Assembly: GCA_041674225.1 (NCBI GenBank) | Contig: JBAYWG010000001.1 | Location: 38,501-102,500 of the forward strand | DNA from: Minisyncoccota bacterium | GTDB lineage: Bacteria; Patescibacteriota; Minisyncoccia; Phycocordibacterales; JAACPR01 | DNA length: 64,000 nucleotides | Direction of reading: 5' to 3' | Part shown: one piece after another, positions 21,781-60,002 of the stretch | Layout of the letters: every line of letters begins with the position of its first letter | Numbering within the stretch: the first letter of the stretch is position 1 | Notes under the pieces: generated by a model | What the model saw: only the letters and a program-made list of their open reading frames with translations | What the model was told of the DNA's origin: nothing | Databases searched by the model: none | Translations under genes and position numbers: made by a program

Positions 21781-21815
21781 TTGTTAATATTCAAAGGTTC
21801 AATCCTAGGAAGAGT

Positions 21816-23435: not shown

Positions 23436-24079
23436 TTTCTGTTTGTGAATTTTTTGAGAATTTCCATGTCATCTTCTTCTGTGTTTTCGACGACAGGCTC
23501 TTTTTCTTGTTGAATTTGAGGTTCAGTTTCCTTTCCAAACCTTGATTTTCCAGTCACTTTTTTCACAAGTGAATTAGCAGCACCAATGACTTTATCAGTC
23601 ATTACATTTCTTGCTTCCTCAACATCTTGAAAAGCTTCTTTTGCGCCGAACATTAGCTCCTCTTGAAGCTCACCAGTTTTTACTGATTCATGAATCTCAT
23701 CGATCTTATCGATTGCCTTGTCACGACCTCTTTTGATCATGAAAGCAACCGGACCAAAGAGAATCCCCGCAAAAACTAGGATCGCATCCAAAATGGAACT
23801 GAATACCTCGACCACAGGATTTGTTCCCATAAACACCACCATAATGATGTTTGTGAGAGTCGAAATTAAAGCCGCCCAAGCGAACTTGACCGCCAGTTTT
23901 CGATTATAGAGAAACCCAAATTCCTCTTCTGGAGCGAGCTCATCTTTGTGAAAGAGATTGAATCTCTTTCTCTGAAATTTCACACCGTAGACTCTGTCAA
24001 CAATGTAACAGTTGAATCCGATGATGAAGTAAACGAGCAACGAGTAGATGATGTATGTTTTGATTGGAATGGTTTCCAT
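23432..24079 (-). CDS. Hypothetical membrane protein (2-3 TM helices) with an acidic C-terminal tail
   Basis: The 215-aa ORF has hydrophobic helices at aa ~8-30 and ~70-110 and is translationally coupled to the downstream gene. Confidence 0.5.
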   Translation of the reverse strand: METIPIKTYIIYSLLVYFIIGFNCYIVDRVYGVKFQRKRFNLFHKDELAPEEEFGFLYNRKLAVKFAWAALISTLTNIIMVVFMGTNPVVEVFSSILDAILVFAGILFGPVAFMIKRGRDKAIDKIDEIHESVKTGELQEELMFGAKEAFQDVEEARNVMTDKVIGAANSLVKKVTGKSRFGKETEPQIQQEKEPVVENTEEDDMEILKKFTNRK

Positions 24080-24096
24080 TTTCTATTTCCTTTCTC

Positions 24097-25374: not shown

Positions 25375-25456
25375 TTTCTCTATTGTTTTTTGTTGTAAGT
25401 TATTGTCAAAGATTTCCGGCTGATTTTAACACGTTTTTAAAAAAAGTCAAAGAAAA

Positions 25457-25489
25457 AACGAGCTAAATCCCAGGGGGATTTAGCTCGTT
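25457..25489 (-). terminator. Intrinsic terminator after the AAA ATPase gene
   Basis: aacgagctaaatccc-aggg-ggatttagctcgtt forms a 12-bp perfect stem. On the minus strand it is followed by TTTTTTCTTTG. Confidence 0.55.
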
Positions 25490-25507
25490 AAAGAGCAAGC
25501 AAAAAAC

Positions 25508-27493: not shown

Positions 27494-28613
27494 TGAGTAC
27501 TCCTTTTTGTGTGTAGGTTATTGTTTGATGTTGTTTGTAAGGCGAAAAATATTCCGCCGTACGATTGATATTTTGCAGAACACGATGAGGAAGCATTAAT
27601 TTTCTCACAACACTCGTTGCTCGATTTTCATATGCAATCCGGTCATCATTTGGAATGAAGAAAACTTCACGAACTCTACCGCCCCTAGAAAACACTCCTG
27701 AGGTAACTTTACTACCCGTAGAAATTATTTTTTCCGAACGCAGTTCAAGAACGAAATCATTCTCGCCACCGTATTTCCTGAGTAATTCACAAAAATCAGC
27801 ACCACTTTCACTCACGCTTGTCAGCGGAGTAAACAGGGGTCCAATTTGAATCCTCTCCAAAAATTTTGGATGAATAGAATTTGAATGATCATCAATCTGA
27901 TGAATCAAAACTCCGATTTGCGGAACATGTTTACTTGAAAAGGAAACAGTATCCACAAATTGTTTCCAATCATCTCCACCATCCTCAAGGGGCTCACGGC
28001 TTGAATCCTGCTCAAATACCAAACTATGAAAGTAAGGCATATTGCAAATTTCTCCATAAACCGCCCAAGTAAAAATGTATCGACGATGTTCTTTGTCGTC
28101 GGAATCCAATCTTTCAAGACCTCCCATTGTAAAAGGTAGAAACATTCTACTCTCGTCCAAAAGATTCGCGTACTCACTTTTAGACAAATCTGAAAGAACT
28201 TCAGTTGTGTCAGCTCCTGTTGTAAGAAGCTTATCAACCAAAATATTTTTCAGCGTTTCCACACCTGCAACATTACGTGCAAGATCAACCTTTCGATTTA
28301 AATCATTTACAGTTTGGAAAATCGAAATTGCGTGTGGAAAACCAGATTCATTCAAATCCAGAGCCAATTCATGACTCGAATTAAAAGAATACTTGATCTT
28401 CAACAACACAATCGTGTAAAGCAGTCGATCAATCATGGGTTTTAAATCGCGCACAACATGATCCGTCGAGCTCCTCACACCTATCCACTCAAGAACTCGT
28501 CCAAGGACAACAGTCATGAGTATAAAGTATTTCGAGTATTCGTCTGGATTTTCGAGTTGCGCGAAATCTCCACACAATCTTTGTTCATCAATTGTTTTTA
28601 TTTCTCTATTCAA
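27483..28613 (-). CDS. Hypothetical protein (376 aa), translationally coupled to the AAA ATPase gene
   Basis: The ORF has no recognisable motif and overlaps the downstream AAA gene start by 11 nt. Confidence 0.5.
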   Translation of the reverse strand: MNREIKTIDEQRLCGDFAQLENPDEYSKYFILMTVVLGRVLEWIGVRSSTDHVVRDLKPMIDRLLYTIVLLKIKYSFNSSHELALDLNESGFPHAISIFQTVNDLNRKVDLARNVAGVETLKNILVDKLLTTGADTTEVLSDLSKSEYANLLDESRMFLPFTMGGLERLDSDDKEHRRYIFTWAVYGEICNMPYFHSLVFEQDSSREPLEDGGDDWKQFVDTVSFSSKHVPQIGVLIHQIDDHSNSIHPKFLERIQIGPLFTPLTSVSESGADFCELLRKYGGENDFVLELRSEKIISTGSKVTSGVFSRGGRVREVFFIPNDDRIAYENRATSVVRKLMLPHRVLQNINRTAEYFSPYKQHQTITYTQKGVLNVN

Positions 28614-28676
28614 TTTAACCTCCTTGTTTTATTGTTTTATTATTGTTATTTGATTTGAAAAATTTTTCACTAAAAA

Positions 28677-28706
28677 GGGGGCGCAGAGCGGATGCTCCAC
28701 ACCCCC
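28677..28706 (-). terminator. GC-rich hairpin plus T-rich tract downstream of the coiled-coil gene
   Basis: The structure is ggggg-cgca-gagc-ggat-gctc-caca-ccccc. On the minus strand it is followed by CTTTTTAGTGAAAAATTTTTC. Confidence 0.4.
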
Positions 28707-28759
28707 AGTTGAGATAAACCTGAAAGGTCTATTCAATCGTGAATTTACAGCATCAGTGG

Positions 28760-30118
28760 TTATACACCACCTTCGCCATATGACGTTTCAGAAGATGCAA
28801 AAGGATCGAGACCGTATTGGTCCTTGAAACTTAGCACCATTGCATTAATTAGGTCTCTCGTCCGAGCCGCATTTTGAGCGGAGACAATTTTAACCTCTTC
28901 CAGAGACTTACGACGGCCAGGCATCTGAGCCAGCATGTCTGTCATTGCAGCGTCAGCTGCGACAACCATACTAACCATTGCCTCACGGTTGTTTAGATCA
29001 ATCTGCGCTCCGACTTCATCAAGATTCTTCAAAGCCTCCTGATCACTCAGGAGTTTATGAGAGGCGAGCCGTGCCTTGAAGGTTACGGCTCGTTCTTCAC
29101 AGCCACTTTTCAGCTGGATGATGAAAGACTGCAGGTTGCCGACCAATCTCTGAATAGCTATCGTAATAAGGCGAAACTCTTCAGCGTATTCGGTTTTTGA
29201 ACTCGACAAGACAAATGCATTGTTTCTAGCAACGCGAGCCTCCTCAAGTTCTCTACCAATGTTGGCGATGACTTCTTCCTGTTCGGAATATTCAACGCTT
29301 CCTTTGGTGATATAACCGAGCTTGCTCTCTTCTTCCTGCATTTTGTGTTGGAGATCCGCAAGGATACCTTCACATTCAGTAAGGGCTTTTATAGCCATGT
29401 CTTTCGCCTTGAACACAGACTCCATCTGTTTCGTAGCCTCGACGAGCATCTCCTGTCCATTTGCACGCGATTGCTCGGTAATCTCAATAACTTGACGGGT
29501 ACGCGTAATGTAAGCGTCAAAAGAATCTTCCATTGAAGCTTCCTTAAGTCTTTGGCGCGCACGTCGTTTTGATTCAACCTTGGCTTCTTCGACTTGAGAC
29601 TTCGCATCTTCAATCTTGGGAACAAGGCTGGTGACAGCACGATCACGCATAAAGAACAGATTCGTCTTGTTTTTTGCAAGAATCATCTGCTCTTCAAGTT
29701 GTTTGAGATTGAACTCAGCTTCACTGACCAAAGCAATGTCTTCTGGGTTTTCTTTACCCAAAGAAGCATACCCTTCATTGATTTTTTGAAGAACGGTAGT
29801 CATCGCAAGCATTGCATCTGCAAGATCTTTCTCTTCTTGCGCAACGTTTGCACGTACACCGCCAAGTGTAGAGCTCAGAATCCTTTCCCTCATTTGGGTA
29901 AGTTCTTCTGGAGACATTCCTTTTTTGGTAGTAGCTTCGGAAATCTGTCTATCAGATTCCTGCATAATCTCGACGAGTTTTTGAGAACCCATCAAAATAC
30001 CACCCTCTTCACGTGCAGACACAACTTCCTCGACCCTTTCTTCGACTCGAGTGATGTTTTGTCGATCTTGACTGGATAATGCGTCAAAAACATTTATTGG
30101 TTTTCTTGTTTCTGTCAT
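28760..30118 (-). CDS. All-alpha coiled-coil protein (452 aa), tentatively TelA-like (toxic-anion-resistance family)
   Basis: It is highly charged with heptad-like E/K/Q/L/A content throughout. The N-terminal segment GILMGSQKLVEIMQESDRQIS resembles the conserved FGxxaQxxLxxFSDxxL motif recalled for TelA. It is a monocistronic unit with its own terminator. Confidence 0.4.
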   Translation of the reverse strand: MTETRKPINVFDALSSQDRQNITRVEERVEEVVSAREEGGILMGSQKLVEIMQESDRQISEATTKKGMSPEELTQMRERILSSTLGGVRANVAQEEKDLADAMLAMTTVLQKINEGYASLGKENPEDIALVSEAEFNLKQLEEQMILAKNKTNLFFMRDRAVTSLVPKIEDAKSQVEEAKVESKRRARQRLKEASMEDSFDAYITRTRQVIEITEQSRANGQEMLVEATKQMESVFKAKDMAIKALTECEGILADLQHKMQEEESKLGYITKGSVEYSEQEEVIANIGRELEEARVARNNAFVLSSSKTEYAEEFRLITIAIQRLVGNLQSFIIQLKSGCEERAVTFKARLASHKLLSDQEALKNLDEVGAQIDLNNREAMVSMVVAADAAMTDMLAQMPGRRKSLEEVKIVSAQNAARTRDLINAMVLSFKDQYGLDPFASSETSYGEGGV

Positions 30119-41145: not shown

Positions 41146-41202
41146 GCATTATTAAGTTAGATTAGATTAAATTAGTTTAGTTCAAATTAGATTTATCTTT
41201 GA

Positions 41203-42567
41203 TTAAGCAATTTTATTTGCGTTCTTATTTTGTTCTTTAAAATCTGAGATTTTATTAGAAACAACTTTTAGAGATCTTTGTTTCTTGAAATATAGAGCTA
41301 TCGCTGTACTCCATACTGCGATTAGAGCAAAAATTCCAAGAGCTTTTGCAATATCACTTGCTCCTGTATAAGGAACTTGTGATAGAAAGATTGAATCCAA
41401 AGATGAAAGATTACCTGTTGGTGTACCTAAGTTTGTTCCAGTAGTTACTGTAACTCTTCGGTCATCATCATCATTATCATCGTCATCATCATCCTCGTCT
41501 TCTACACGAACATCAGGACATTCGTCAGTAGCTCGGTCGCCATTAGCGTCACGTACTTCTACTGAAACTTCGTATGTCCCTCTTCGGTTGTAACGAACTC
41601 TTTCTTCGTCATCATCTCCAGAGATATCACCTTTCCATTCAATTCGGTATGATGATCTTCCTCCATCGATTTCAACTTCATAAGTCACTGTGTCTCCTTC
41701 CTCGATTCGAGTATCAGAAACTCTACAGATAATATTTAGATCGTCATCATCGTCATCGTTTGACTGAACAATGTGAGTTGTTGTACTACAATTAACATTG
41801 TTTACACTGCTACTTGCGTTACCAACATTACTACAATGAGCATTAATAGAGTTATCTGTAATAATTACATCGTCATCACTGTAGTTTAGATTTAATCCAA
41901 GAGCGTTCATTCCACCACCTTGTGAACCTCCACCTCCACAACCTGATCCAGAACATCCTCCTCCATTAGAACCTCCACCACCTTGTGAACCTCCTCCATT
42001 ATAACCTCCACCGTTAGATCCTCCTCCAGTGTAACCACCGTTAGAACCTGATCCACCTCCTAGGTAAGAATCGATGTAACTATCTGCTACACCATATCCA
42101 CCATAGTCGTAACCAGCGTAGTCATATCCACCGTAATCGTAACCAGCGTAGTCATATCCACCATAGTCGTAACCAGCGTAGTCATATCCACCGTAGTCGT
42201 AACCAGCGTAGTCATATCCACCGTAATCGTATCCAGCGTAGTCATATCCACCGTAATCGTATCCAGCGTAGTCATATCCACCGTAGTCATAACCAGAGTA
42301 ATCGTATCCACCGTAGTCGTATCCACTGTAGTCATACCCACCGTAATCATAACCAGAGTAATCGTATCCACCGTAATCGTATCCACCGTAGTCGTATCCA
42401 CCGTAGTCGTATCCACTTGATCCATAATCATATCCTCCACCGTAGTCATACCCACCGTAGTCGTATTGAGCTGATGCGTTTTCAATATTGAAAACACCGA
42501 AAGCTGTAAATACTACAAAAAGTAATACGAAAGCGTTAATGATGTTTAATTGTTTTTTGATAATCAT
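41203..42567 (-). CDS. Secreted YDYGG-repeat / Gly-rich / Asp-rich surface protein with a C-terminal VPYTG motif, TM helix and basic tail (candidate sortase substrate)
   Basis: A signal peptide is followed by about 25 copies of (G/S/A)YDYGGYDY, then a GGSNGGG region. An Ig-like segment between poly-Asp runs comes next, and the C-terminus reads VPYTGAS...IFALIAVWSTAIALYF-KKQRSLK. Confidence 0.7.
   Translation of the reverse strand: MIIKKQLNIINAFVLLFVVFTAFGVFNIENASAQYDYGGYDYGGGYDYGSSGYDYGGYDYGGYDYGGYDYSGYDYGGYDYSGYDYGGYDYSGYDYGGYDYAGYDYGGYDYAGYDYGGYDYAGYDYGGYDYAGYDYGGYDYAGYDYGGYDYAGYDYGGYGVADSYIDSYLGGGSGSNGGYTGGGSNGGGYNGGGSQGGGGSNGGGCSGSGCGGGGSQGGGMNALGLNLNYSDDDVIITDNSINAHCSNVGNASSSVNNVNCSTTTHIVQSNDDDDDDLNIICRVSDTRIEEGDTVTYEVEIDGGRSSYRIEWKGDISGDDDEERVRYNRRGTYEVSVEVRDANGDRATDECPDVRVEDEDDDDDDNDDDDRRVTVTTGTNLGTPTGNLSSLDSIFLSQVPYTGASDIAKALGIFALIAVWSTAIALYFKKQRSLKVVSNKISDFKEQNKNANKIA
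42091..42470. repeat. Near-perfect 30-bp tandem DNA repeat encoding the YDYGGYDYxG array
   Basis: The unit gtcatatccaccgtaatcgtaaccagcgta is repeated about 12 times, with only occasional a/g and t/c changes. Confidence 0.8.
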
Positions 42568-42733
42568 GATAATTGTTTTATATAAGATAATTTGAACATT
42601 ACACTAAATTTGTAACGTATTTATATGATAACATTTTTATATACAAATGTCAATCCTTATCTTTACTTTAAATAAAAATGCCTCGCCGTCTGAATTAACA
42701 AACGACGAGGACATTGAGCAAGATTTTCACTTA

Positions 42734-43411
42734 CTATTCCGCAAGGATGTACGGCACAACGACCGTCTCATTCCTCGAAGTACTGAAGACACTGAAGGTC
42801 TTGATTTCCTTACCGCTCGCCAACCGACGAACGTCAGGGTTAGTCGAGGCCGATTCCCCATTTACAGGTCCTCGCGGACCGACGAAGGTTTTGATTTTTT
42901 CGCCAGTATCCGGGTGGGTCCCGTCTTCCAGTCTCCAGCCGACGTTGTCACCGATAGTGACAGGGGTACTCGATTGAGCACCACTACCCCTCACAACAGT
43001 CTTGCGAACCACATGGTAAGCACCAGTGGCAGAAGCCTCGAGTTTCTCACCCGGAAACAACTTGTTGCTGGTAATCGCCTTGAAGATCTTCGCGTCTGCA
43101 GGGTCTGGGTCATGCATCAACCCCAACATAAAGACTTCGCCTTCATGCGACCACCCAGCGAACGTGTCCACCGGTTCTCCAACCTTGGTGTACATGTCGC
43201 ACAAGCGGATGATCTGAGGCCAAGCGTTACAATCGGAGCCATAAGCCTCGACGAATTTTTGCCACAAATCCTGTTTCACCAAGCCAGGCTTGACGTCGAG
43301 GACAACCGAAGGATTCGCGTCAGGCATCTTAACGACACCTTGAGCCTGTGAATTACCGGTGATAAAAAATACCACCGCCGTCATGATGATTGCAATTGCT
43401 GCGTTTTTCAT
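42734..43411 (-). CDS. Secreted hypothetical protein (225 aa, signal peptide)
   Basis: The N-terminus MKNAAIAIIMTAVVFFITGNSQAQG is a clear Sec signal peptide. The region has higher GC, and a terminator hairpin sits downstream at about 42681-42712. The opposite-strand ORF at 42647-43351 is judged spurious. Confidence 0.5.
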   Translation of the reverse strand: MKNAAIAIIMTAVVFFITGNSQAQGVVKMPDANPSVVLDVKPGLVKQDLWQKFVEAYGSDCNAWPQIIRLCDMYTKVGEPVDTFAGWSHEGEVFMLGLMHDPDPADAKIFKAITSNKLFPGEKLEASATGAYHVVRKTVVRGSGAQSSTPVTIGDNVGWRLEDGTHPDTGEKIKTFVGPRGPVNGESASTNPDVRRLASGKEIKTFSVFSTSRNETVVVPYILAE

Positions 43412-43521
43412 AATAATCTTAATCTTGTTTTTGGTTTGTGAATGATTCTCTGATTCCCAAATAGCATAGCATATTATACGGATTTGTCAACAGTCACTAA
43501 ATACCCCATACATAAAGAAAA

Positions 43522-43554
43522 AACCGTAATCGCGCATTACACACGATTACGGTT
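43522..43554 (-). terminator. Intrinsic terminator after the FGEIRGG-repeat gene
   Basis: aaccgtaatcg-cgcattacaca-cgattacggtt forms an 11-bp stem. On the minus strand it is followed by TTTTTTCTTTATG. Confidence 0.5.
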
Positions 43555-43562
43555 AGTGATTT

Positions 43563-44600
43563 TTACCTCCTGATTCCAGACATCATTCCATGAATCATCT
43601 GCCCTAGGGAAGGATGATTCTGATGAGAGTCTCTTCCACCTCTTTCACGTTGAAAGTCTTGTAGACATCTCTCCCGATAGTCAGGACGATAAGGTCCTGT
43701 ACGATACATTGGTGACCGCACCGGTGATCGATTATTTGTTGTAAAGAAATTATTTCTTGGCGCCATATGATTCGCCATAAAGAAATTATTTCTCGGCTGC
43801 TCTCTGTAAGAAGTACGGGGATGTGTCGTTGTAAAACAATCATCTCTCGGTAACTCTCTGTAAGAAGTACGAGTAGGTATCACTTCCGCACGATAAATAG
43901 GTTGAGTCCGAACATGTTCTCTCACAACTGGTCGTTCACAAGTAACTTGAGGTTGTCCTATTTCTACACACCCAAGATTCAAGGATGACTCACAATTACC
44001 AACGGTATTTGTCACACCACGAATTTCTCCAAATGTTGTAGAAGCAGCACGACGATTGTCGTGAATGATTGCTGTTCTTCCACGGATTTCTCCGAAGGTT
44101 ACATCCACACTACGACTATCCTCATGAATCATCGTTTTGCCACCACGGATTTCTCCGAAGGAAACATCGACATTTCTGTGGTCTTCACAAATAACGGTTG
44201 CACCGCCACGGATTTCACCGAAGGTTACACTAACACTACGGCTATCATCTTCAATAATAGTCATACCACCGCGAATTTCTCCGAAATTCACAACTGAACT
44301 GCGTTCATCCCGAACAATCTTTATTCCACCATAAACTTCTCCAAAGGTCACGAGGTATTGCTCGGGCTCAGGAGGTTCATCTCCACCGCTCTTGTCCCAG
44401 GGTATACCTGGTGTAGGAACGGGTTTAATATACGGATCACCAAAAAGTGGTATTGGGGGGATTTCGTCGGACTTTTCCGCACCAGGAACTGGTGGAGGAA
44501 GAATGCGACCATCGTCATCAGGCTTTACATTTCCATCATCCGAACTGACATTCACCGACATCATACCAAGCGTGAAAAATATCAAGTAAGTAATTTTCAT
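43563..44600 (-). CDS. Secreted protein with six 22-aa tandem repeats (TFGEIRGGxTxIxEDxRSVxV) and a Pro/Arg/Tyr-rich C-terminal region
   Basis: A signal peptide and Pro-rich linker are followed by the repeat block, then a Cys-containing segment and an R/Y/P-rich tail (SYRELPR.../SYREQPR...). Confidence 0.55.
   Translation of the reverse strand: MKITYLIFFTLGMMSVNVSSDDGNVKPDDDGRILPPPVPGAEKSDEIPPIPLFGDPYIKPVPTPGIPWDKSGGDEPPEPEQYLVTFGEVYGGIKIVRDERSSVVNFGEIRGGMTIIEDDSRSVSVTFGEIRGGATVICEDHRNVDVSFGEIRGGKTMIHEDSRSVDVTFGEIRGRTAIIHDNRRAASTTFGEIRGVTNTVGNCESSLNLGCVEIGQPQVTCERPVVREHVRTQPIYRAEVIPTRTSYRELPRDDCFTTTHPRTSYREQPRNNFFMANHMAPRNNFFTTNNRSPVRSPMYRTGPYRPDYRERCLQDFQRERGGRDSHQNHPSLGQMIHGMMSGIRR
43990..44350. 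repeat. Imperfect ~66-bp tandem repeats (6 copies) encoding the FGEIRGG 22-aa units
   Basis: ccacggatttctccgaaggt..., ccgccacggatttcaccgaaggt... and ccaccgcgaatttctccgaaat... recur at about 66-bp spacing. Confidence 0.7.
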
Positions 44601-44694
44601 ATTTAAATAACTGGGTTGCGCTCGACGTTTTGTCGGGCTATTTCAAAATAAGAATACCATATTTAGCCAGCAGAGTCAAAACAAAAAAATCCGA

Positions 44695-45411
44695 TTACCC
44701 CTTAATCACAGCATCCACCACCCACCTATCACTCTTAGTTCCAAAAGAATTACATGTAGAAATTGTTAGTCTTCTTCCACTTCTACTCAAATCTATAAAA
44801 GCACTCTCGGCATCAGCTTGATACACCTTCTCAATAACATAAGTGTATTTTTGACCGTTCGCATATAAAATAATCTCATCACCTATTTTTGACTTCTCTA
44901 TTCCATTAAAAGTTTTGTAAGCTTGATTGATCACGACTGGCAAACCACTACTGTGTCCAAAAATAAAAATATTTCCTTTTTCAATAAAACCAGAGCCAGG
45001 ATAATACACAGCACCTTTTTGCAAAGCAGAATCCAAGACATCAATCATCGGACTTTGTGGTTGCAAAACGACAGAATCAATTCCAACTGAAGGAATTAAA
45101 ATTCGTGAAGGTTTAGATAATTGTGTCTCTGTTGGTGCCACTGCCAATTGCGAATTGTCTTCACTTCTCAAAATTCTTCCTTCTCGATCACGCACATAAC
45201 TCACCTCTTCTAGAGAATTCGGATCGCTAATAGAGGTATTTGTAGAATAATTTATTTTTTCTTTCTCTTCTTGCTTATTAGTAGTAGTAAATTCTTTTGG
45301 AATTAAATTTTTAGGAAGTAGCCCAAATAATGCAAAAACAAAAATAGAAACTAAAAAAATTCCAGCAGCTTGGGTCCAGAAAAGTGCGTTCTCGTTTTTT
45401 TTAAGACTCAT
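44695..45411 (-). CDS. Sortase-family transpeptidase
   Basis: An N-terminal TM anchor is followed by catalytic-region motifs: FIFGHSSG (His), TISTCNSFG (Cys in a TxxTC context) and a downstream Arg. Confidence 0.7.
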   Translation of the reverse strand: MSLKKNENALFWTQAAGIFLVSIFVFALFGLLPKNLIPKEFTTTNKQEEKEKINYSTNTSISDPNSLEEVSYVRDREGRILRSEDNSQLAVAPTETQLSKPSRILIPSVGIDSVVLQPQSPMIDVLDSALQKGAVYYPGSGFIEKGNIFIFGHSSGLPVVINQAYKTFNGIEKSKIGDEIILYANGQKYTYVIEKVYQADAESAFIDLSRSGRRLTISTCNSFGTKSDRWVVDAVIKG

Positions 45412-52805: not shown

Positions 52806-52877
52806 GGCGTGGTGGTGAAGAGGTAACACCGGAGTTTGCAAAACTTCTATGCGCAGGTTCGATTCCTGTCCACGCCT
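52806..52877 (+). tRNA. tRNA-Cys (anticodon GCA)
   Basis: Acceptor ggcgtgg/ccacgcc, anticodon stem ggagt/acttc and loop ttGCAaa; the molecule is 72 nt. Confidence 0.8.
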
Positions 52878-52899
52878 CAAGGTTGATTAACAACCGAAT

Positions 52900-52981
52900 G
52901 CCCGGATGGCGGAATTGGTAGACGCCCTCGACTTAAGATCGAGTATCGTAAGGTGTGTGGGTTCGAGTCCCGCTCCGGGCA
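52900..52981 (+). tRNA. tRNA-Leu (anticodon TAA)
   Basis: Acceptor gcccgga/tccgggc, anticodon stem ctcga/tcgag, loop ctTAAga, a long variable arm and the T-loop ttcgagt. Confidence 0.85.
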
Positions 52982-53004
52982 CAAGCTGATTTTTTCAGTG
53001 ATAT

Positions 53005-53077
53005 CCGCCTATAGCTCAGCTGGTAGAGCAGTCGCCTCTTAAGCGAACGGTCGTAGGTCCGAGTCCTACTAGGCGGA
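53005..53077 (+). tRNA. tRNA-Lys (anticodon CTT)
   Basis: Acceptor ccgccta/taggcgg, D-arm agctcagctggtagagc, anticodon stem tcgc/gcga with loop ctCTTaa, and T-arm gtagg-tccgagt-cctac. Confidence 0.8.
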
Positions 53078-53239
53078 CAAGCGAGCAAATAAGGAAGTGT
53101 GTTTTACATTTCCTTATTTGCGAGCGCGGACGCCTTGCACGAAGTTCAGGCGGACAAGCGAGCAAATAAGGAAGTGTGTTTTACATTTCCTTATTTGCGA
53201 GCGCGGACGCCTTGCACGAAGTTCAGGCGGACAAGCGAG
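53072..53239 (+). repeat. 77-bp direct tandem repeat (2.2 copies) that begins with the last 6 nt of tRNA-Lys; each unit contains a 15-bp palindromic hairpin
   Basis: Units start at 53072, 53149 and 53226. The third unit is truncated after ggcggacaagcgag. Each unit carries gcaaataaggaagtgt-gtttt-acatttccttatttgc. Confidence 0.85.
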
Positions 53240-53293
53240 TGAAATATGTACAAGCACTGGCGCATTTTATTTTAACTGATAAAATCGCTACAT

Positions 53294-53375
53294 GCCGAGA
53301 TGGCGAAATTGGTAGACGCACTTGCCTTAGGAGCAAGCGGGGTGACCCATGGAGGTTCGAGTCCTCTTCTCGGCA
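53294..53375 (+). tRNA. tRNA-Leu (anticodon TAG)
   Basis: Acceptor gccgaga/tctcggc, anticodon stem cttgc/gcaag, loop ctTAGga, a long variable arm and the T-loop ttcgagt. Confidence 0.85.
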
Positions 53376-53410
53376 CAAATATATACAAATTACATCCAAA
53401 TATTTTCAAA

Positions 53411-53482: not shown

Positions 53483-54652
53483 TTGGTAAAAAATGTGCTA
53501 ATATATACACAAATTAAAACGTGCTCAATGTGTATTGAGCCGTGTGGCTCTTTCACAGGTCGAATGACCATGCGCGAAAAACTTACAGAAAAAATGATAT
53601 TCACTACATCTGAACAAGTTCGTGAACACTTGAAAAAAGTTTCACTAAAGCCAGAGTACTCTATTCTGGTTTTGATATCTATATCAGGAATCATTTCATG
53701 GGTAGCATCAATGGTGATCGCCTATTTTTATGAAATGTCCTTTTATGGAGTACTGCCAGGAACAATGTTCTTGGCAATAACCACAATGATCGTCTTCGTA
53801 CTTCTCCCTTTGGGAAAAATACAAATCAAGATGGGTCACAAAGGTATCCCAACTTTCTTGGACAAAAGGCGTTTCGAAGAAAGATATCCTAGAGCAGAGC
53901 TTTGCATACTTGAGGAAGGCACTCACTGGGGAATACCTGGTCTATGTGGAGCTATCAGTGTCAGTTTCGAAGAAGATTCAATTTCCATCGAGAAAGCGAT
54001 TGCAAAAGTACCGATCGATCCAGTACACAAAACTGGAAAATTCAAAACGGCTACTTTTGTTGATATTGAGTTTTCAGAAGGAAAGTTGCAATTCATGGTA
54101 TCTGATCCCTATGCATTTACCAACGTTGGAGCTGCTGGACTGAAGGAGGATTTAACTTCTGCAATAGGAGAAGCAATTCGAGACTTTGCCATAACGACAA
54201 CCACAAAGGCTGTTTATGAGGCGGGTGTAAACGGATTTATCCTTGATAACATCAAGCAGCGTAAGACAGATGGGGTTAGACTAGATACGGAACGATGGGG
54301 TATTCTGCCATTGGCAGCCTTTTTTCCTAAAATAGATCCAGAAAACCCGAAAGTTAAGGAAGCTCTCGAGGGACAGTATTTGGAAGCTTTGAATAAAATC
54401 AAAGAGGTTTCTGAAGCTCAAACTCTGGCAGAAATATTCAGAAAACTCAAAGGTGCTGCTAAAGGTGCATCGGATGAGTTTGTCATGAGTGTCGCAATAA
54501 GAATTGTGGAAGACCTGACTAAGATCGGACAAGATGTGTTTATTCACAACCACGGCTCGGCTGGAAACGGCTCAGTTGATGGAGCTTTGTTCGGAATTGG
54601 TGCAGCTGTACTTAACCAAAGCAATCAAAACAGAGGAGGAACTCCAACATGA
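53483..54652 (+). CDS. Membrane-anchored protein, possibly SPFH/band-7-like (real start probably the MTMREK Met near 53569)
   Basis: Two N-terminal TM helices are followed by a soluble domain. Its segment FMVSDPYAFTNVGAAGLKEDLTSAIGEAIRDFAITTTTKAVYEAG resembles the SPFH core. This is a tentative call. Confidence 0.4.
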   Translation: MVKNVLIYTQIKTCSMCIEPCGSFTGRMTMREKLTEKMIFTTSEQVREHLKKVSLKPEYSILVLISISGIISWVASMVIAYFYEMSFYGVLPGTMFLAITTMIVFVLLPLGKIQIKMGHKGIPTFLDKRRFEERYPRAELCILEEGTHWGIPGLCGAISVSFEEDSISIEKAIAKVPIDPVHKTGKFKTATFVDIEFSEGKLQFMVSDPYAFTNVGAAGLKEDLTSAIGEAIRDFAITTTTKAVYEAGVNGFILDNIKQRKTDGVRLDTERWGILPLAAFFPKIDPENPKVKEALEGQYLEALNKIKEVSEAQTLAEIFRKLKGAAKGASDEFVMSVAIRIVEDLTKIGQDVFIHNHGSAGNGSVDGALFGIGAAVLNQSNQNRGGTPT

Positions 54653-55152
54653 TTGAACCTGAAGTAATTAAAACAAAAGGAATATCTCTAAAAGGTATTA
54701 TCTATTTTGTCGTAGGAGTTGTGATAGTCTTCTTCATTCTTGCTTGGACTTCGTCCTGCAAGAAAGGGGTTGAAGCACCTAAGCCTCCTAAAAAAGTGCT
54801 CGGAGAGGTGAGAACTGAAACGTTCACACTTCTTCCGGGAAAATCCATCGTCTTCTCGACAGTGGATGAAAAAACGGGTTTGCTCTGCAACTACATTCCA
54901 ATCTGGGATACGTGGACAGAAAAGTCTGAGCTTCGCCACACCACCCACAAGCGGTTTGGTCAGGACGGTGTTGGTAGTCTGGACTTGGCGGGATATTTAT
55001 TCCCCAAAGACAGAAGTACCTTCATCAAAGGTGACTCCGATCCTATCAATGACACCATTCACTATGTGATGGTAGAGAACATAGGACCTGACACGGTAAC
55101 GTTTACCGTAAGGTTCATAGGATGGCGGTTACCCCCCATCAAACCACTGTAA
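54649..55152 (+). CDS. Hypothetical membrane-anchored protein with a beta-rich C-terminal domain
   Basis: Its start overlaps the upstream stop (ATGA). It has an N-terminal TM helix and a downstream terminator. Confidence 0.45.
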   Translation: MIEPEVIKTKGISLKGIIYFVVGVVIVFFILAWTSSCKKGVEAPKPPKKVLGEVRTETFTLLPGKSIVFSTVDEKTGLLCNYIPIWDTWTEKSELRHTTHKRFGQDGVGSLDLAGYLFPKDRSTFIKGDSDPINDTIHYVMVENIGPDTVTFTVRFIGWRLPPIKPL

Positions 55153-55174
55153 GTGCTTCGCGCACAATAACCAA

Positions 55175-55211
55175 AAGACCCGGATCGCTTGCGCGGCCCG
55201 GGTCTTTTTTT
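55175..55211 (+). terminator. Strong intrinsic terminator
   Basis: aagacccgg-atcgcttgcgcg-gcccgggtctt is followed by TTTTTTT. Confidence 0.6.
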
Positions 55212-55253: not shown

Positions 55254-55499
55254 TTAAGCTCCAAAAATAGATTTCTTAAAAGCTTCCAGGATTGCAACTG
55301 CCGACAACATAATAAATATTCCTACTAATCCCCACAACATATGCTTAGCACCTTCTTCTCTTTTTCCTGGTTCATCTGCTCCGCGTATGTATTGAGCGAT
55401 ACCCCAAACAAATATCAGAATAGCAAAACCAAACAATAATGTTATCGTCGGGTCTAAAATTACTTCGGCTATTTTTTTTACTAGTCCAGATGCATCCAT
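55254..55499 (-). CDS. Small two-TM protein, VirB2/TrbC-like pilin paralog 1
   Basis: The 81-aa ORF shows TM1 ...FGFAILIFVWGIAQY, a charged loop, then HMLWGLVGIFIMLSAV. This shared module is found in all six genes of the array. Confidence 0.5.
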   Translation of the reverse strand: MDASGLVKKIAEVILDPTITLLFGFAILIFVWGIAQYIRGADEPGKREEGAKHMLWGLVGIFIMLSAVAILEAFKKSIFGA

Positions 55500-55514
55500 T
55501 TTTCTAAACTTTTA

Positions 55515-55901
55515 TTATCCTTGAACTTTTGGAATAGCTGGAGCTGTAGGTGTGCTTGTATTTAATTCTAGAGAGTCTCTCAAGATATTTACAAGTCCCC
55601 ATACAGATACCATCACAAACAATGCAATGATTCCCCAAAGCATGAAAGTTCGTCCTTCAGCTTTTCCAGCATCACTTGAATTCAAAACGTATTTCAAAAC
55701 TCCCCATAGGAATACAAGTACTCCAAGTCCGATAACGATAGGAATCAAAGCTTGAACAATTCCTCCTAACATTCCGATAAGTTTTTTTATACCTTCATCC
55801 CCACCTCCTTGTTGTGGCAATTGTTGAGCCAAAGTGATTACAGGTAATGCAAATGCAAATGCAATTACAGAAAGTCCTTTTACACTACTAATTTTTTTCA
55901 T
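55515..55901 (-). CDS. Signal-peptide plus two-TM protein, pilin-like paralog 2
   Basis: The 128-aa ORF has a signal peptide followed by LIPIVIGLGVLVFLWGVLKY, an SSDAGK loop and FMLWGIIALFVMVSVWG. Confidence 0.5.
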   Translation of the reverse strand: MKKISSVKGLSVIAFAFALPVITLAQQLPQQGGGDEGIKKLIGMLGGIVQALIPIVIGLGVLVFLWGVLKYVLNSSDAGKAEGRTFMLWGIIALFVMVSVWGLVNILRDSLELNTSTPTAPAIPKVQG

Positions 55902-56008
55902 AATTAAATTATTATTTTTATTTACAATAAACCGGATATAACGGTATGAATAAATTATAGCACTTAAAAAACTAATAAAACTAATACCAGCGAGAGCTGT
56001 GGAATATT

Positions 56009-56308
56009 TTATTTTCCAGCGGCTTCGGCACTTTTAAACTGCGGTATATTTAATCCTGATTCATCCAACAAAGATTTTTGCAGAAGTAGAACCAGACCCC
56101 ACACCGCAATCAAAACAAATAGAGCAACTAGTCCATAAGTTATTGTTTGAACACTCTCCGTTCTTTTTGAAGCGTTATCACTATGTGTTAAATATTTCAC
56201 AATCCCAAACAAGAAAAAGAATAAGGCTACTGCAGCACCTAATCCTGTAAGGTTTTGTATTATTACTAAAATATTTTCTACAATTGTTGCGTATGATATG
56301 TCTTTCAT
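56009..56308 (-). CDS. Two-TM protein, pilin-like paralog 3
   Basis: The 99-aa ORF shows LFFFLFGIVKY, a HSDNASK loop and ITYGLVALFVLIAVWG. Confidence 0.5.
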   Translation of the reverse strand: MKDISYATIVENILVIIQNLTGLGAAVALFFFLFGIVKYLTHSDNASKRTESVQTITYGLVALFVLIAVWGLVLLLQKSLLDESGLNIPQFKSAEAAGK

Positions 56309-56312
56309 AAAA

Positions 56313-57377
56313 TTATTGTATAATTAAAGAGTCTATTGGTATATTCTGTTTACCGAGTGTTGGTTGCTGCTCTAAATTGATCCCGACAGTATCACCAATC
56401 ATTTTTGTAAATCCCCAAACACCAGCCAAAACTAATAGTAGTATAATTCCCCAGGTCATGTAAGCAACAGCTTCCCCTTTTTTCTTTGCATTTTCTGTAG
56501 TGGTGTATTTAAAGACTCCCCACAGAAACAGGAATATTCCAATTGTCACCAAAAGAGGTAGAGCAGTTTGGACTATATCCATTAATTTTATAATAGAAGT
56601 ATTTATACCAGCTCCACCGGCAGAATTAGTCTGTGTGGGCGGGTCAATTGTAGGTTTTGTCGTAAGATCTTCGACTGCTTCACCTGAGCTCCCTGGTTCA
56701 GCCGGATTTGTATCGCTGAAAATTGTTTGTTGCAAAATAACCACAAATCCCCAAACAAAAACCATCACCGTAATAGCGACGATTCCCCAAGTCATAAAAC
56801 TTCTCGCTAACTCTTTGTTTTTGGCATCCGTAGAAAATGCATAGCGCAAAACTCCAAAAAGAAACAACAGAACAGCAAGCAAAATTACAATCGGTATAAC
56901 ATCCGCAACAATATCTCCAACTATTTTCAATCTATCCAAAATTGGTGTACCCCCAGATAATCCAGAGCCCTCTGATTTTGGAATTTCTTTCAATCCAGCA
57001 ACTTCTTTTTCAGGAGCACGACTATTATCAGTCCCTCCTAAAAATGCATCTTGTAACAAAAACACAATTCCCCAAATAGAAACCATGACAAAAAGAGAAA
57101 TAATTCCCCAAGTCATAAATCCTATTGATTCCTTTTTACTTTTCGGATCAGGAGAAGAAAGATATTTCAAAATTCCCCACAGAAATACGAGTAAACCAAG
57201 ACCAATAACAATCGGGATCAACCTTTGTACAGCATCAGCAATAGTTTCCAAAATTTCTGTAGCTGTTTTACCAGAAGAACCACCTACCCCTGCATCAGCT
57301 GGATTTTGAGCAAATGAAATTAAAGGTAGTAGTAGTCCAGCGAGAGTAAAAATTGTTTTTTGAATAATTTTTATCAT
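56313..57377 (-). CDS. Triple tandem fusion of the pilin-like two-TM module (354 aa, signal peptide)
   Basis: The LIPIVIGL...FLWGILKY...SxDxKxK...FMTWGII...VWG unit occurs three times, separated by Gly/Pro/Ser-rich linkers. Confidence 0.55.
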   Translation of the reverse strand: MIKIIQKTIFTLAGLLLPLISFAQNPADAGVGGSSGKTATEILETIADAVQRLIPIVIGLGLLVFLWGILKYLSSPDPKSKKESIGFMTWGIISLFVMVSIWGIVFLLQDAFLGGTDNSRAPEKEVAGLKEIPKSEGSGLSGGTPILDRLKIVGDIVADVIPIVILLAVLLFLFGVLRYAFSTDAKNKELARSFMTWGIVAITVMVFVWGFVVILQQTIFSDTNPAEPGSSGEAVEDLTTKPTIDPPTQTNSAGGAGINTSIIKLMDIVQTALPLLVTIGIFLFLWGVFKYTTTENAKKKGEAVAYMTWGIILLLVLAGVWGFTKMIGDTVGINLEQQPTLGKQNIPIDSLIIQ

Positions 57378-57381
57378 TTTT

Positions 57382-57747
57382 TTATCCAGAAATTTGTTTT
57401 ACAGTATTGTCTATCACTCGACTCAAAACATGAGCTCCTAAAATAACCATACCTCCAACAATTACCCAGAAGAAAGTTTGTTTTGCTTTTTGCAATTCAC
57501 TTTCATTTCCTTGAGCTTTAACAAAAAGAAATCCAGCATAGATAAGAAAGAACACTGCGATAATTGCACCGAACTCTACAACCACTTTAAGAAACTTTTC
57601 CACCAACTGTTTTAGATCTGTCGATTTGATTGGATTCGGAAAATTGATTGTTTCTGCATGTGCAGATGAAAAAATTACAAAGTTCATGAATATTGAGGTA
57701 AATAACCCTGATGTAATGTATGTAATTTTTTTAATTTTATTTTTCAT
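57382..57747 (-). CDS. Signal-peptide plus two-TM protein, divergent pilin-like paralog 5
   Basis: The 121-aa ORF shows AIIAVFFLIYAGFLFV, a QGNESELQKAK loop and FFWVIVGGMVILGAHV. Confidence 0.45.
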   Translation of the reverse strand: MKNKIKKITYITSGLFTSIFMNFVIFSSAHAETINFPNPIKSTDLKQLVEKFLKVVVEFGAIIAVFFLIYAGFLFVKAQGNESELQKAKQTFFWVIVGGMVILGAHVLSRVIDNTVKQISG

Positions 57748-57755
57748 AAATGTAA

Positions 57756-58169
57756 TTAAAATCCTGTTGGTAAAAATGTTTTATCTACCTCTAATGTCTT
57801 TGTGATTGCCTGCACTATAAGCCAACCAGCAGAAGCTAGGAAAAATCCAATCACAACATTTTGCAAAATTCTATGTGCTGTTTGTATTTTACCAGTATCC
57901 CCAGCTGCTGTTAAATATAATCCACCTGCATACACAATAAATATTACAGATACAAGTACGGCAAGTTGCAAGGCGTAATCTTTGACTTTGTTAATCATTT
58001 CTTTAAAAGCATTCCAATCACAGCTTTTTACATCATTACAGTTTACCAAAGGATTATTTGCATTCACTTGAGTTCCGGAACCAGATTGAGCCGAAACCAC
58101 AAATGGCACAGTCATGATCAAAATCACCGCGAGAATAGTTAGATTTGAAATTAGTTTTGATTTAATCAT
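57756..58169 (-). CDS. Signal-peptide plus two-TM protein, divergent pilin-like paralog 6
   Basis: The 137-aa ORF shows LAVLVSVIFIVYAGGLYL, an AAGDTGK loop and ILQNVVIGFFLASAGW. Its stop overlaps the start of the SBP gene. Confidence 0.45.
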   Translation of the reverse strand: MIKSKLISNLTILAVILIMTVPFVVSAQSGSGTQVNANNPLVNCNDVKSCDWNAFKEMINKVKDYALQLAVLVSVIFIVYAGGLYLTAAGDTGKIQTAHRILQNVVIGFFLASAGWLIVQAITKTLEVDKTFLPTGF

Positions 58170-59473
58170 GGTTGTAATAAATTAATTTCTCCAGCTGCGC
58201 GAACCACAGCTTCTGAAGTTGTAAGCCTTCCAGAGACTACAGATTCTACAAGTCTTTGGAATATCTTATCAGTTTCTTCTGGATTAAAATCGTAAACATT
58301 TTTAGAAATCAAAGCAGAATCATGAAATGTTTGCATAAATGCATTCCCAGAACGAGTTGCCAGAAGATCTCTACGTACAGGAGGTAAGAAAAGAACATCT
58401 GAAATAAAAGCATTCACTTCAGGCTCTATCAAATGTCTGACCAATGCATAAGACCTCTCAACATTTGGTGAGCTTTTTGGAATTGCTAAGGCCAAAACTT
58501 TTCCATAAGTCGAACGAGTACCACTTCTTGATTGAGGCATTAGAGCAACATCAAAATTTAAGTTTGGATTTTTTTGTCGCACTGTCGCGAATTCACTCGC
58601 ATAACCAAAATACATAGCAACATCACCGGCAATAAAAGAATCCAGAGAATTTGGTAGAGACCTATTCCACGAATAGACAGTTCGCGAAGGATTGGCGAAT
58701 TGTGTATAAAAATTTACAGCAGACTGAGAAGGTGATGTAGCAAAATCAAAACTTTCATCCAAAACTACAGAGTAGGGCGGAGTTCCGGGGTCTGCAATTA
58801 GATTTCTCACAACAATCTTATTTCCAGCCTGCATCAAAAGAGTTGTTAGAATTTGTTTAGCGTGACTTATATTTCCATAATCTCCCATTGCCACAGCTGA
58901 TTTTTTAATAGTCAAATCTAAATCAGTCTCTACAAGTTGAGGAACAGTTGTTAGCATTTCATCCCAAAATTTTGGTGGTTGAGATAAACCTTTTTCAGTA
59001 AAGAAAGATCTGTTCCAATACATCACAATTGGGTCAATTAGAAACGGAAAGGCAAAAATTCCTCTTTCATCTTTAAAAATCTCTCCGGCTTCTACAAAAG
59101 AATCTTTGTACAACCTTTCTGGAAAAAATTCATAAGAGATTTGGAAAAGTTTTTTCTCGTGACGCACAACTTTATCGTCGGTAATCAAAACTAAATCAGG
59201 ACCAATACCTTCAGCTAAAGCTGTTGTGAAAACAGTATCAAATTGAGACGGTTCAATATAACGGTAATCTACAGTTTGCTCAATTTGTTTTTGACTTTTT
59301 AGATAATCTGAAACTAGAGTAAAATCAGCATCGGTAATAGTACCCCACACCACAACATTTCCAGCTTGTGCACTTGTGCTAGATTTTGAAAATGCAAAAA
59401 TAACAACCCCAATCACAATTACGATTCCTGAGACTACTAACAATATTGTTTGAAATGGTGAAAGGTTTTTCAT
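58166..59473 (-). CDS. ABC transporter extracellular solute-binding protein (family 1, sugar-type), orphan
   Basis: The 435-aa ORF has an N-terminal TM/lipo-anchor and an SBP_bac_1-like organisation. No permease or ATPase gene is nearby. Confidence 0.65.
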   Translation of the reverse strand: MKNLSPFQTILLVVSGIVIVIGVVIFAFSKSSTSAQAGNVVVWGTITDADFTLVSDYLKSQKQIEQTVDYRYIEPSQFDTVFTTALAEGIGPDLVLITDDKVVRHEKKLFQISYEFFPERLYKDSFVEAGEIFKDERGIFAFPFLIDPIVMYWNRSFFTEKGLSQPPKFWDEMLTTVPQLVETDLDLTIKKSAVAMGDYGNISHAKQILTTLLMQAGNKIVVRNLIADPGTPPYSVVLDESFDFATSPSQSAVNFYTQFANPSRTVYSWNRSLPNSLDSFIAGDVAMYFGYASEFATVRQKNPNLNFDVALMPQSRSGTRSTYGKVLALAIPKSSPNVERSYALVRHLIEPEVNAFISDVLFLPPVRRDLLATRSGNAFMQTFHDSALISKNVYDFNPEETDKIFQRLVESVVSGRLTTSEAVVRAAGEINLLQP

Positions 59474-59477
59474 ATTT

Positions 59478-60002
59478 TTATTTTATAAATATCATACCGT
59501 AATGATGGTCTCCTGCGCGAATTTCTCTTAGTAAAGAAAAACCAGCTTTCTCAAAAATTACCTTACCTTGTTCAGGTTTTATAATTCTAGAAGGGTGTGG
59601 ACCAAGTCCTCCAAAAGAATCAGACCAATCAATTAAAAGTGCTGTGCATTTTGGTTTTAAAATTCTGTAGGCTTCTTTTGCCACAGCCTCTTTATCATCT
59701 GTTTGAAAAAGAGTATTTGCAATCAAAACTCTATCGATAGAAGAATCTGCCAATCGTGTGCTATTTTCTTCATCAATATCTCCCCAAATAATTTCTACGT
59801 TTTCAATTCCCTTTTTAAAGGCTTCATTTTTTAATTTCAATAAAAGATCTTGTTGCACATCTACTGCAAAAACTTTACCGGTTTTTCCAACAAAATTTGC
59901 TAAAACCAGAGAATAGAAACCCGCTCCAGAACCCAGATCCACTACTTTCATTCCCGGATCAACAGCAAATTGTTCGATATTTTTTTCTGGTTGCGAAAAC
60001 AT
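59478..60002 (-). CDS. Class I SAM-dependent methyltransferase
   Basis: Motif I VVDLGSGAGFYS and post-I acidic residues are present in a 174-aa ORF. Confidence 0.75.
   Translation of the reverse strand: MFSQPEKNIEQFAVDPGMKVVDLGSGAGFYSLVLANFVGKTGKVFAVDVQQDLLLKLKNEAFKKGIENVEIIWGDIDEENSTRLADSSIDRVLIANTLFQTDDKEAVAKEAYRILKPKCTALLIDWSDSFGGLGPHPSRIIKPEQGKVIFEKAGFSLLREIRAGDHHYGMIFIK

Follow-up and report, generated by a model that had tools for sequence, protein, structure and literature searches.

Tandem arrays of small VirB2-like pilin genes have been catalogued in the Patescibacteria by a survey with the Pfam families PF18895 and PF04956, which recovered 441 arrays of 2-11 genes in 383 assemblies, with a paralog identity of 25% on average and 54% at most (Quinonero-Coronel et al. 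2025 Microb Genom, PMC12102498). The same survey lists VirB4 in 2,417 of 3,035 Patescibacteria assemblies (80%) and pilin genes near virB4 in 1,135 of 1,948. In Southlakia epibionticum a series of predicted pilins lies inside an essential type IV secretion system (T4SS) cluster (Wang et al. 2023 Cell, PMC10633639); a 2025 review (PMC12857230) puts the number of these pilins at six and comments that a pilus on a monoderm cell would be remarkable. A VirB2-like protein of Gram-positive bacteria, PrgF, is needed for conjugation; in the proposed model it forms a pilus that rests on a pentamer of VirB6 (ter Beek et al. 2025, bioRxiv 10.64898/2025.12.18.695078). We report here the analysis of an array of this kind in a Minisyncoccota bacterium (assembly GCA_041674225.1), located at positions 55254-58169 of a 64,000-nucleotide stretch of contig JBAYWG010000001.1, hereafter the window. 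The minus strand of the window carries six adjacent genes in which one two-helix membrane hairpin occurs eight times; their products are designated P1 to P6:

57756-58169, minus strand: P6, 137 amino acids (aa), first-position class; putative signal peptide, head with a cysteine pair, two-helix hairpin
57382-57747, minus strand: P5, 121 aa, second-position class; the TrbC/VirB2-like member, with putative signal peptide and hairpin
56313-57377, minus strand: P4, 354 aa, triple-module protein with one putative signal peptide, three hairpins, two linkers and a C-terminal tail
56009-56308, minus strand: P3, 99 aa, middle class without signal peptide, tail LNIPQFKS
55515-55901, minus strand: P2, 128 aa, middle class with putative signal peptide; the best conserved of the six and the nearest to the consensus
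55254-55499, minus strand: P1, 81 aa, last-position class without signal peptide

These coordinates, taken from the list of open reading frames (ORFs), are exactly those of a first-pass annotation made from the letters of the sequence. That annotation had assigned the genes to the VirB2/TrbC-like pilins and had proposed a search with hidden Markov models (HMMs) as the check, and the assignment is upheld. All six proteins lie above the curated gathering cutoff of PF18895, T4SS_pilin (26.6 bits, whole-protein score), with scores between 29.3 and 51.7 bits (P1 36.6, P2 29.3, P3 37.6, P4 51.7, P5 30.6 and P6 36.3), and P4 is matched in three separate stretches. The curated cutoff of PF04956, TrbC/VirB2 (27.9 bits), is passed by P5 alone (31.5 bits, E 2e-7), the other five having no match to this family at E<=1 in the Pfam scan; in precomputed tables the majority of P5 orthologs match both families. 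The six proteins also match nearly the full 80-residue model of NCBIfam NF045849, the Mbov_0395 pilin-like family of Mycoplasma integrative and conjugative elements (E 5e-10 to 2e-4), but all of them score below its curated cutoff of 40 bits (P4 38.9, the others 21-32) and are therefore not members. On these profile scores we show that P1 to P6 belong to the T4SS_pilin family. The exact sequence of P4 is recorded at NCBI as 'MAG: pilin [Candidatus Paceibacterota bacterium]', which places the organism in the candidate phyla radiation, for which the annotation had mentioned a pilin family of this look.

With six adjacent matches to PF18895 or PF04956 and divergent paralogs, the array falls within the definition of a VirB2-like array used in PMC12102498, and it is a Paceibacteria instance of that published type. 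It shares with the published arrays the tandem arrangement of 2-11 small genes and the low identity between paralogs (here 6-50%), and with S. epibionticum the number of six pilins, but it sits in a block of genes for GyrA, a methyltransferase (MTase) and a solute-binding protein (SBP) rather than in a T4SS cluster. To the TrbC/VirB2 pilins of Gram-negative T4SS (PF04956) it is likened by a long signal-peptide-like N-terminus, a hairpin of two helices whose loop is short and basic, and the score of P5; it differs from them in that one protein of six passes the threshold, VirB3, VirB4 and VirB6 are not adjacent, the organism is monoderm and no match to solved pilin structures was detected.

The literal motif which the annotation described for all six genes, F(L/V)WG(I/V)LKY ... 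FM(T/L)WGI ... VWG, is present in P2 and in each module of P4 and, in weaker form, in P3 and P1. P5 and P6 lack the motif and carry (I/V)YAG(F/G)L in its place, and P5 is linked to the other modules at the profile level only (hhalign with P4 module 1, probability 94.9%, E 4e-8). The range of 6-50% quoted above is the pairwise protein identity between modules; at the DNA level the best stretches between copies are 61-78% identical and near-identical repeats are absent. An N-terminal signal peptide or hydrophobic segment had likewise been attributed to every gene. Such N-termini, read from the sequence, occur only in P2, P4, P5 and P6, with AxA-type cleavage sites (TLA/QQ, SFA/QN, AHA/ET and VSA/QS, the slash marking the site), while P1 and P3 begin straight at the module, as do P4 modules 2 and 3, before which there is no signal peptide. 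The head of P6 contains a conserved cysteine pair (CNDVKSC), and a cysteine-containing head recurs across arrays; that of P5 carries the motif FPNPIKSTD. An alternative gene call of the source contig shortens P5 to 101 aa from an internal methionine start, with loss of the signal peptide (record P0172; locus L001, 9691-9996); since the P5 orthologs measure 119-127 aa, the 121-aa form is the likely product.

In an AlphaFold2 (AF2) model, P5 consists of a signal helix and one hairpin (helices 45-77 and 82-120) at a mean confidence (pLDDT) of 79.6, and P4 of a signal helix followed by three helical hairpins (residues 39-74/78-113, 145-181/185-222 and 258-293/297-330) with two low-confidence linkers between them. 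Both models have the shape of a PF18895 protein, two long hydrophobic helices joined by a short polar loop over about 70 residues. Seven of the eight modules have a hairpin loop of net positive charge, the exception being the neutral loop of P1; the N-terminal segments are either acidic or neutral.

The three-fold repetition of the module within the gene at 56313-57377, which the annotation had also reported, is confirmed both by the three stretches matched to PF18895 and by the three predicted hairpins. The parts of P4 downstream of its signal peptide are as follows:

57039-57272, minus strand: module 1, residues 36-113; groups with P2 in the module alignment and tree
56952-57038, minus strand: linker 1, residues 114-142; tail motif LKEIPKSEG followed by GGTPILD
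56718-56951, minus strand: module 2, residues 143-220; from the module alignment, tree and AF2 model
56616-56717, minus strand: linker 2, residues 221-254; acidic, rich in proline and glycine, less conserved, low pLDDT
56382-56615, minus strand: module 3, residues 255-332; from the module alignment, tree and AF2 model

Because the copies are no more than 61-78% alike in DNA, without near-identical repeats, the triple gene is not an artefact of assembly. About 15 full-length orthologs of 353-372 aa are found at 42-80% identity, together with a three-module relative at 29%, and the fusion is thus a real, conserved variant. Residues 114-144, which span linker 1, show no nonsynonymous change at all against the closest relative, at a synonymous difference (pS) of 0.43, and the prolines P122 and P133 of this linker are invariant in 16 orthologs; the ratio of nonsynonymous to synonymous substitution (dN/dS) for the linker 2 region (residues 223-256) in the same comparison is 0.33. 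Linker 1 joins the tail of a middle-class pilin, LKEIPKSEG, to GGTPILD, which resembles a mature N-terminus, and P4 therefore reads as whole mature pilins placed end to end, from which the internal signal peptides have been lost. Such an end-to-end fusion of mature pilins suggests that they assemble together.

How unusual a triple pilin is, as the annotation put it, depends on where one looks. In the syntenic arrays associated with the SBP gene, fusions are scarce, with 374 single-module genes to one two-module gene (locus L008; 1/375), and two-module versions occur also in L005 and P0016. The wider family gives another picture. An exhaustive HMMER search returned 39,671 representatives at E<=1e-3, and modules were counted for the best 150, of which 145 carry at least two; as the ranking by total score favours multi-module proteins, this count is a lower bound for poly-pilins and not a frequency. 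A stricter recount of the same 150 gave two modules in 76 proteins, three in 29, four in 18, five in nine, six in seven, seven in four and nine in two; HMMER's own maximum among these best representatives (P0020-P0166) is 11. Over the set the linkers have a median length of 25 aa. One 11-module cluster (P0112/P0167) contains a protein assigned by NCBI to Candidatus Altiarchaeales (MCK4491598.1), and the phenomenon seems to reach the Archaea. As to the origin of P4, an attempt to map its three modules, P3 and P2 one to one onto the middle genes of single-module arrays failed, all of these middle genes scoring best against P2; P4 may have arisen either by the joining of genes that were already neighbours or by the copying of one mature unit.

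The pilin genes form the downstream part of a tightly packed block with the following further elements:

59478-60002, minus strand: small S-adenosylmethionine-dependent MTase, first gene of the packed block (methyltransferase Pfam families in precomputed tables)
58166-59473, minus strand: SBP-like gene, 435 aa; N-terminal transmembrane (TM) helix, no lipobox cysteine, membrane-anchored
55954-55962, minus strand: possible internal promoter, TGCTATAAT, extended -10-like, in the 107-nt gap between P3 and P2 (read from sequence)
55173-55204, no strand assigned: GC-rich hairpin GACCCGG...CCGGGTC with TTTT after it and an A-run before it, between the convergent genes of P1 and a 167-aa protein (orf167)

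The SBP gene matches SBP_bac_8 with 65.5 bits (cutoff 27, E 8.9e-18) and SBP_bac_1 with 56.4 bits (cutoff 26, E 6.2e-15). No ABC permease or ATPase gene lies next to it, its neighbours being the MTase gene, gyrA and the pilin genes. The MTase and SBP genes are 4 nt apart and the SBP stop overlaps the P6 start by 4 nt; then follow spacers of 8 nt (P6-P5), 4 nt (P5-P4), 4 nt (P4-P3), 107 nt (P3-P2) and 15 nt (P2-P1). From the MTase through P3 the spacing thus stays between -4 and 8 nt, and the gap of 107 nt is the sole sizeable one; the promoter-like TGCTATAAT within it was not picked up by a consensus promoter scan. The hairpin at 55173-55204 is likely a bidirectional terminator between P1 and orf167; its T-run lies on the pilin strand and its loop of 14 nt is the reason why the scan missed it.

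An alignment search with the SBP gene found relatives in at least 523 GTDB species genomes, of which 80 loci were kept, and every ORF in these loci was searched with an HMM built from the eight modules of the window. Their NCBI titles are mostly of the Parcubacteria/Paceibacteria type (one, CP011215.1, is a complete genome), and all seven loci compared with the GTDB column of PMC12102498 belong to the class Paceibacteria. Many loci with a Paceibacteria-type block, with accessions of the CAY* and CAZ* series, are titled 'uncultured Candidatus Saccharibacteria', and these NCBI names look unreliable; a further locus of this type (L063, JBEBJM010000007.1) was binned as 'Nitrospira sp.', which suggests contamination of the bin. 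In one relative (L002, 4841-7320 and 15562-17069) gyrA is split into 182+640 aa and infB into 154+342 aa by frameshifts or sequencing errors.

A pilin array of at least two genes lies directly downstream of the SBP gene in all 65 species-level loci that extend at least 1.5 kb beyond it. GyrA is encoded upstream in 64 of 66 loci, and the MTase gene, a candidate functional part of the pilin system, adjoins the SBP gene in 51 of 75. Where the sequence downstream of the SBP gene reaches at least 5 kb (49 loci), the array comprises six pilin genes in 24 cases, seven in 15, five in 5 and two to four in 5. Five relatives that were fetched are syntenic over the whole block, with matching gene sizes, and the synteny persists where the identity of the fused protein has fallen to 29%; P3 is a separate gene in all orthologous arrays.

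In the 42 arrays of six or seven genes (26 + 16), the first, second and last positions each belong to a fixed class. By best match, the first position is held by a P6-type pilin in every one of the 26 six-gene and 16 seven-gene arrays, the second by a P5-type pilin in 41 of 42, and the last by a P1-type pilin in all 16 arrays of seven genes and in 21 of the 26 with six, while the genes in between resemble P2 and the P4 modules, most with P2 as their best match. The architecture [SBP][P6-type][P5-type][middle-type x n][P1-type] is conserved. Each class also has its own appendages: the first a signal peptide and a cysteine-containing head, the second a head with 'NP[ILF]', the middle class commonly a C-terminal [G/N/A]-I-P-x tail ([IVL]P in 123 of 154 tails), and the last, without signal peptide, a head of about 7 aa in a protein of median length about 89 aa.

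This coupling to an SBP gene, the positional classes and the end-to-end poly-pilin make up a variant that we did not find in the literature searched. SBP coupling, positional classes and three-module fusion are absent from PMC10633639 and PMC12102498, neither of which mentions a link between an SBP and pilins, and our literature search produced no paper on such a link or on fused or tandem VirB2-domain poly-pilins, though one may still be published.

The annotation read the divergence of the copies as rapid paralogous diversification, a reading which the comparison with other genomes does not support. Neighbour-joining of the 24 modules of three genomes places the eight modules in eight separate orthogroups, so that the duplications and the fusion predate the three lineages. 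Against the closest relative dN/dS (Nei-Gojobori) is 0.27 for P6, 0.07 for P5, 0.11 for P4, 0.09 for P3, 0.28 for P2 and 0.12 for P1, values which at a dS of 0.3-1.2 are rough; the SBP stands at 0.05. The pilins are 47-93% identical to their orthologs (P4 47-57%, P2 70-87%), against 89-94% for GyrA and 88-96% for the MTase, and so evolve faster than their housekeeping neighbours. At the level of sequence these ratios show the array to be under purifying selection, and one-to-one orthology, fixed classes and synteny kept down to 29% identity show it, as far as genome comparison can tell, to be an old and stable six-gene operon in which duplications and fusion are ancient. The divergence between P5 and P6, which had been cited in support of diversification, reflects two ancient classes instead.

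The reading that we favour, and hold to be rather probable, is that this chromosomal Paceibacteria operon encodes, in six genes co-transcribed with the SBP gene and coupled to it in translation, eight VirB2/TrbC-like hairpins that form a heteromeric T4SS pilus or conduit. Each hairpin would insert in the cytoplasmic membrane with its basic loop inside and both termini outside, by a Sec-dependent route for the four proteins with signal peptides (P2, P4, P5 and P6) and by a YidC-like one for P1 and P3. As the number of helices per module is even, the three modules of P4 would share this loop-in, termini-out topology behind a single signal peptide. The pilin pool would then be extracted and polymerised by a VirB4-powered T4SS of the Gram-positive (MPF-FATA-like) type encoded elsewhere in the genome, and a short pilus or conduit of several subunit types would result where the cell touches its host. 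By analogy the most plausible working model is PrgF, likewise a small two-TM VirB2-like protein of a monoderm T4SS for which a short pilus on a VirB6 pentamer is proposed; PrgF, however, is a single gene beside virB6 on plasmids, whereas the window has eight modules in four classes, on the chromosome and away from T4SS genes.

We infer the link of the array to a T4SS from homology and from co-occurrence in related genomes: Table S1 of PMC12102498 lists six of seven named genomes with the locus as VirB4-positive, among them the complete genome GCA_001029775.1. Several observations weigh against the favoured reading. The seventh of those genomes, a 440-kb partial assembly, is listed as VirB4-negative. 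The annotation's remark that VirB4, VirB6 and VirD4 genes are missing from the window is correct; neither these nor VirB3 were found among its ORFs, including those without a Pfam match, and gene tables of roughly 20 kb from five relatives, like the shorter contigs of others, list no T4SS gene. Searched against NCBIfam and PADLOC, the window ORFs without a Pfam match gave no T4SS or defence match and a single, far sub-threshold one to benzaldehyde dehydrogenase. The invariable partner of the array is the SBP, which is not a T4SS component, and tblastn of P5 against 72,556 plasmids returned no homolog. A sequence search of the PDB with a profile of the eight modules and another of 34 P5 sequences yielded nothing significant, and solved VirB2-family pilins were matched neither in sequence nor in fold, the hairpin being too simple a fold for such tests. 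To our knowledge, a pilus has been seen for no Patescibacteria T4SS.

The main rival is that the hairpins and the SBP would form an envelope complex independent of any T4SS, for example for ligand capture or uptake or as a receptor scaffold, with the VirB2 fold recruited anew. The linkage of SBP and array in 65 of 65 loci, the overlap of stop and start in the window, the persistence of the linkage even at 29% identity of the fused protein, the strong purifying selection on the SBP and the want of a permease, ATPase or T4SS gene nearby all fit such a complex. We nevertheless consider it unlikely, since the proteins are homologous to T4SS pilins, VirB4 is present in most genomes that carry the locus and the counterpart array in the Saccharimonadia lies inside the T4SS cluster and is essential; moreover, the synteny within the gyrA housekeeping block (64 of 66 loci) could in part be genome stasis. 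A second proposal, made for the VirB2 clusters of Bartonella and Anaplasma, which likewise hold several tandem paralogs and are read as variable surface antigens, would make the paralogs rapidly diversifying, interchangeable surface variants serving host range or immune evasion. PMC12102498 raises this possibility for Patescibacteria arrays, and here the low identity between paralogs and the evolution of P4 and P6, several-fold faster than that of GyrA, IF-2 and the MTase, might be quoted for it. It is improbable for the window, where every module has a one-to-one ortholog without lineage-specific expansion among three genomes, positional classes with their own heads and tails are fixed over 48 arrays, all six genes have dN/dS of 0.07-0.28, no near-identical DNA repeats exist to drive recombination, and three paralogs in one chain are incompatible with expression as alternatives. 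Fixed classes, one-to-one orthology and the fusion of three neighbours lead us to argue that the paralogs are probably non-redundant subunits that assemble together, and not interchangeable antigenic variants.

A variant of the favoured reading, and not a separate function, is that P4 is a polyprotein precursor cut at its linkers to give three mature pilins in a ratio of 1:1:1. The unchanged linker 1 with its two invariant prolines, and linkers that look like the tail of one separate pilin followed by the head of another, would suit such a precursor, and TrbC and VirB2 are indeed processed at their C-termini. We regard cleavage as possible but doubtful: no AxA-type signal-peptidase site is evident, on reading the sequence, after the internal TM2 helices, the operon contains no dedicated protease gene, linker 2 is much less conserved, and contacts between subunits explain the conservation of a linker equally well. 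Finally, the annotation itself had named an unrelated two-TM family, such as holins or bacteriocin-immunity proteins, as the finding that would overturn it. Small two-TM proteins are generic, and structure searches return only generic helical hairpins; yet curated pilin thresholds are passed while holin and immunity families give no match even at E<=1, and the locus belongs to a conserved housekeeping block, present in at least 65 species, that contains neither phage nor bacteriocin genes and has no PADLOC matches nearby. This alternative has no support and is very improbable indeed.

A broader form of the favoured reading, which we put forward tentatively and as doubtful, holds that the SBP-pilin operon encodes one obligate heteromeric appendage of fixed subunit order (P6, P5, several middle and P1 types) with the SBP as its ligand-binding part, that is, a nutrient- or signal-capturing T4SS-type pilus specific to the Paceibacteria. 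Covalent poly-pilins, with three units here and up to 9-11 elsewhere, including the Altiarchaeales cluster, would then be a general strategy, not described so far, in which VirB2-type filaments are assembled from neighbours that are already linked.

The remainder of the window is ordinary chromosome, with rpoB/C, rpoD, dnaG, dnaE, gyrA, smc, clpB, infB, aminoacyl-tRNA synthetase genes and five tRNA genes. Convergent with the array, a Band_7/SPFH-like gene (53483-54652, plus strand) overlaps the gene of the 167-aa membrane protein (54649-55152, plus strand). In the closest relative (L006) the SBP is 94% identical, but the counterparts of these two proteins are only 23% and 43% identical, and the pair is not detectable by BLAST in any of 49 more distant loci; the stretch 53483-55152, which separates the pilin operon from a tRNA cluster, is thus hypervariable or has been replaced repeatedly. 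That cluster, four tRNA genes (Cys, Leu-taa, Lys-ctt and Leu-tag) at 52806-53376 beside the Band_7 locus, is a possible hotspot of integration or recombination. Further away, the region of about 21800-30100 is richer in G+C (0.39-0.43) than much of the window, where the value is about 0.35, and holds a DUF6638 protein gene (24097-25374), an AAA ATPase gene (25508-27493) and four ORFs of 215-539 aa, which have no significant match in Pfam, NCBIfam or PADLOC; it is possibly an acquired island. A second G+C peak spans about 41200-45400 (0.44 at 42-44 kb), where three ORFs without a Pfam match (41203-42567, 42647-43351 and 43563-44600) adjoin a sortase gene (44695-45411) and may encode sortase substrates or surface proteins.

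As a plain case of a published array type the window would otherwise be ordinary. The Patescibacteria, however, are host-dependent and account for much of the diversity of bacteria, and among systems of this kind the T4SS with its pilin array in S. epibionticum is alone in having been shown to be indispensable for growth. Paralogs that are fixed, class-specific and non-redundant favour a heteromeric structure over antigenic variation. That three neighbours can be joined through their outward-facing termini without loss of function would restrict the packing of the subunits and offers a natural construct for structural work. Furthermore, in the Paceibacteria the array is inseparable from an orphan SBP, which provides a simple marker for the locus and hints at a role in capture or import.

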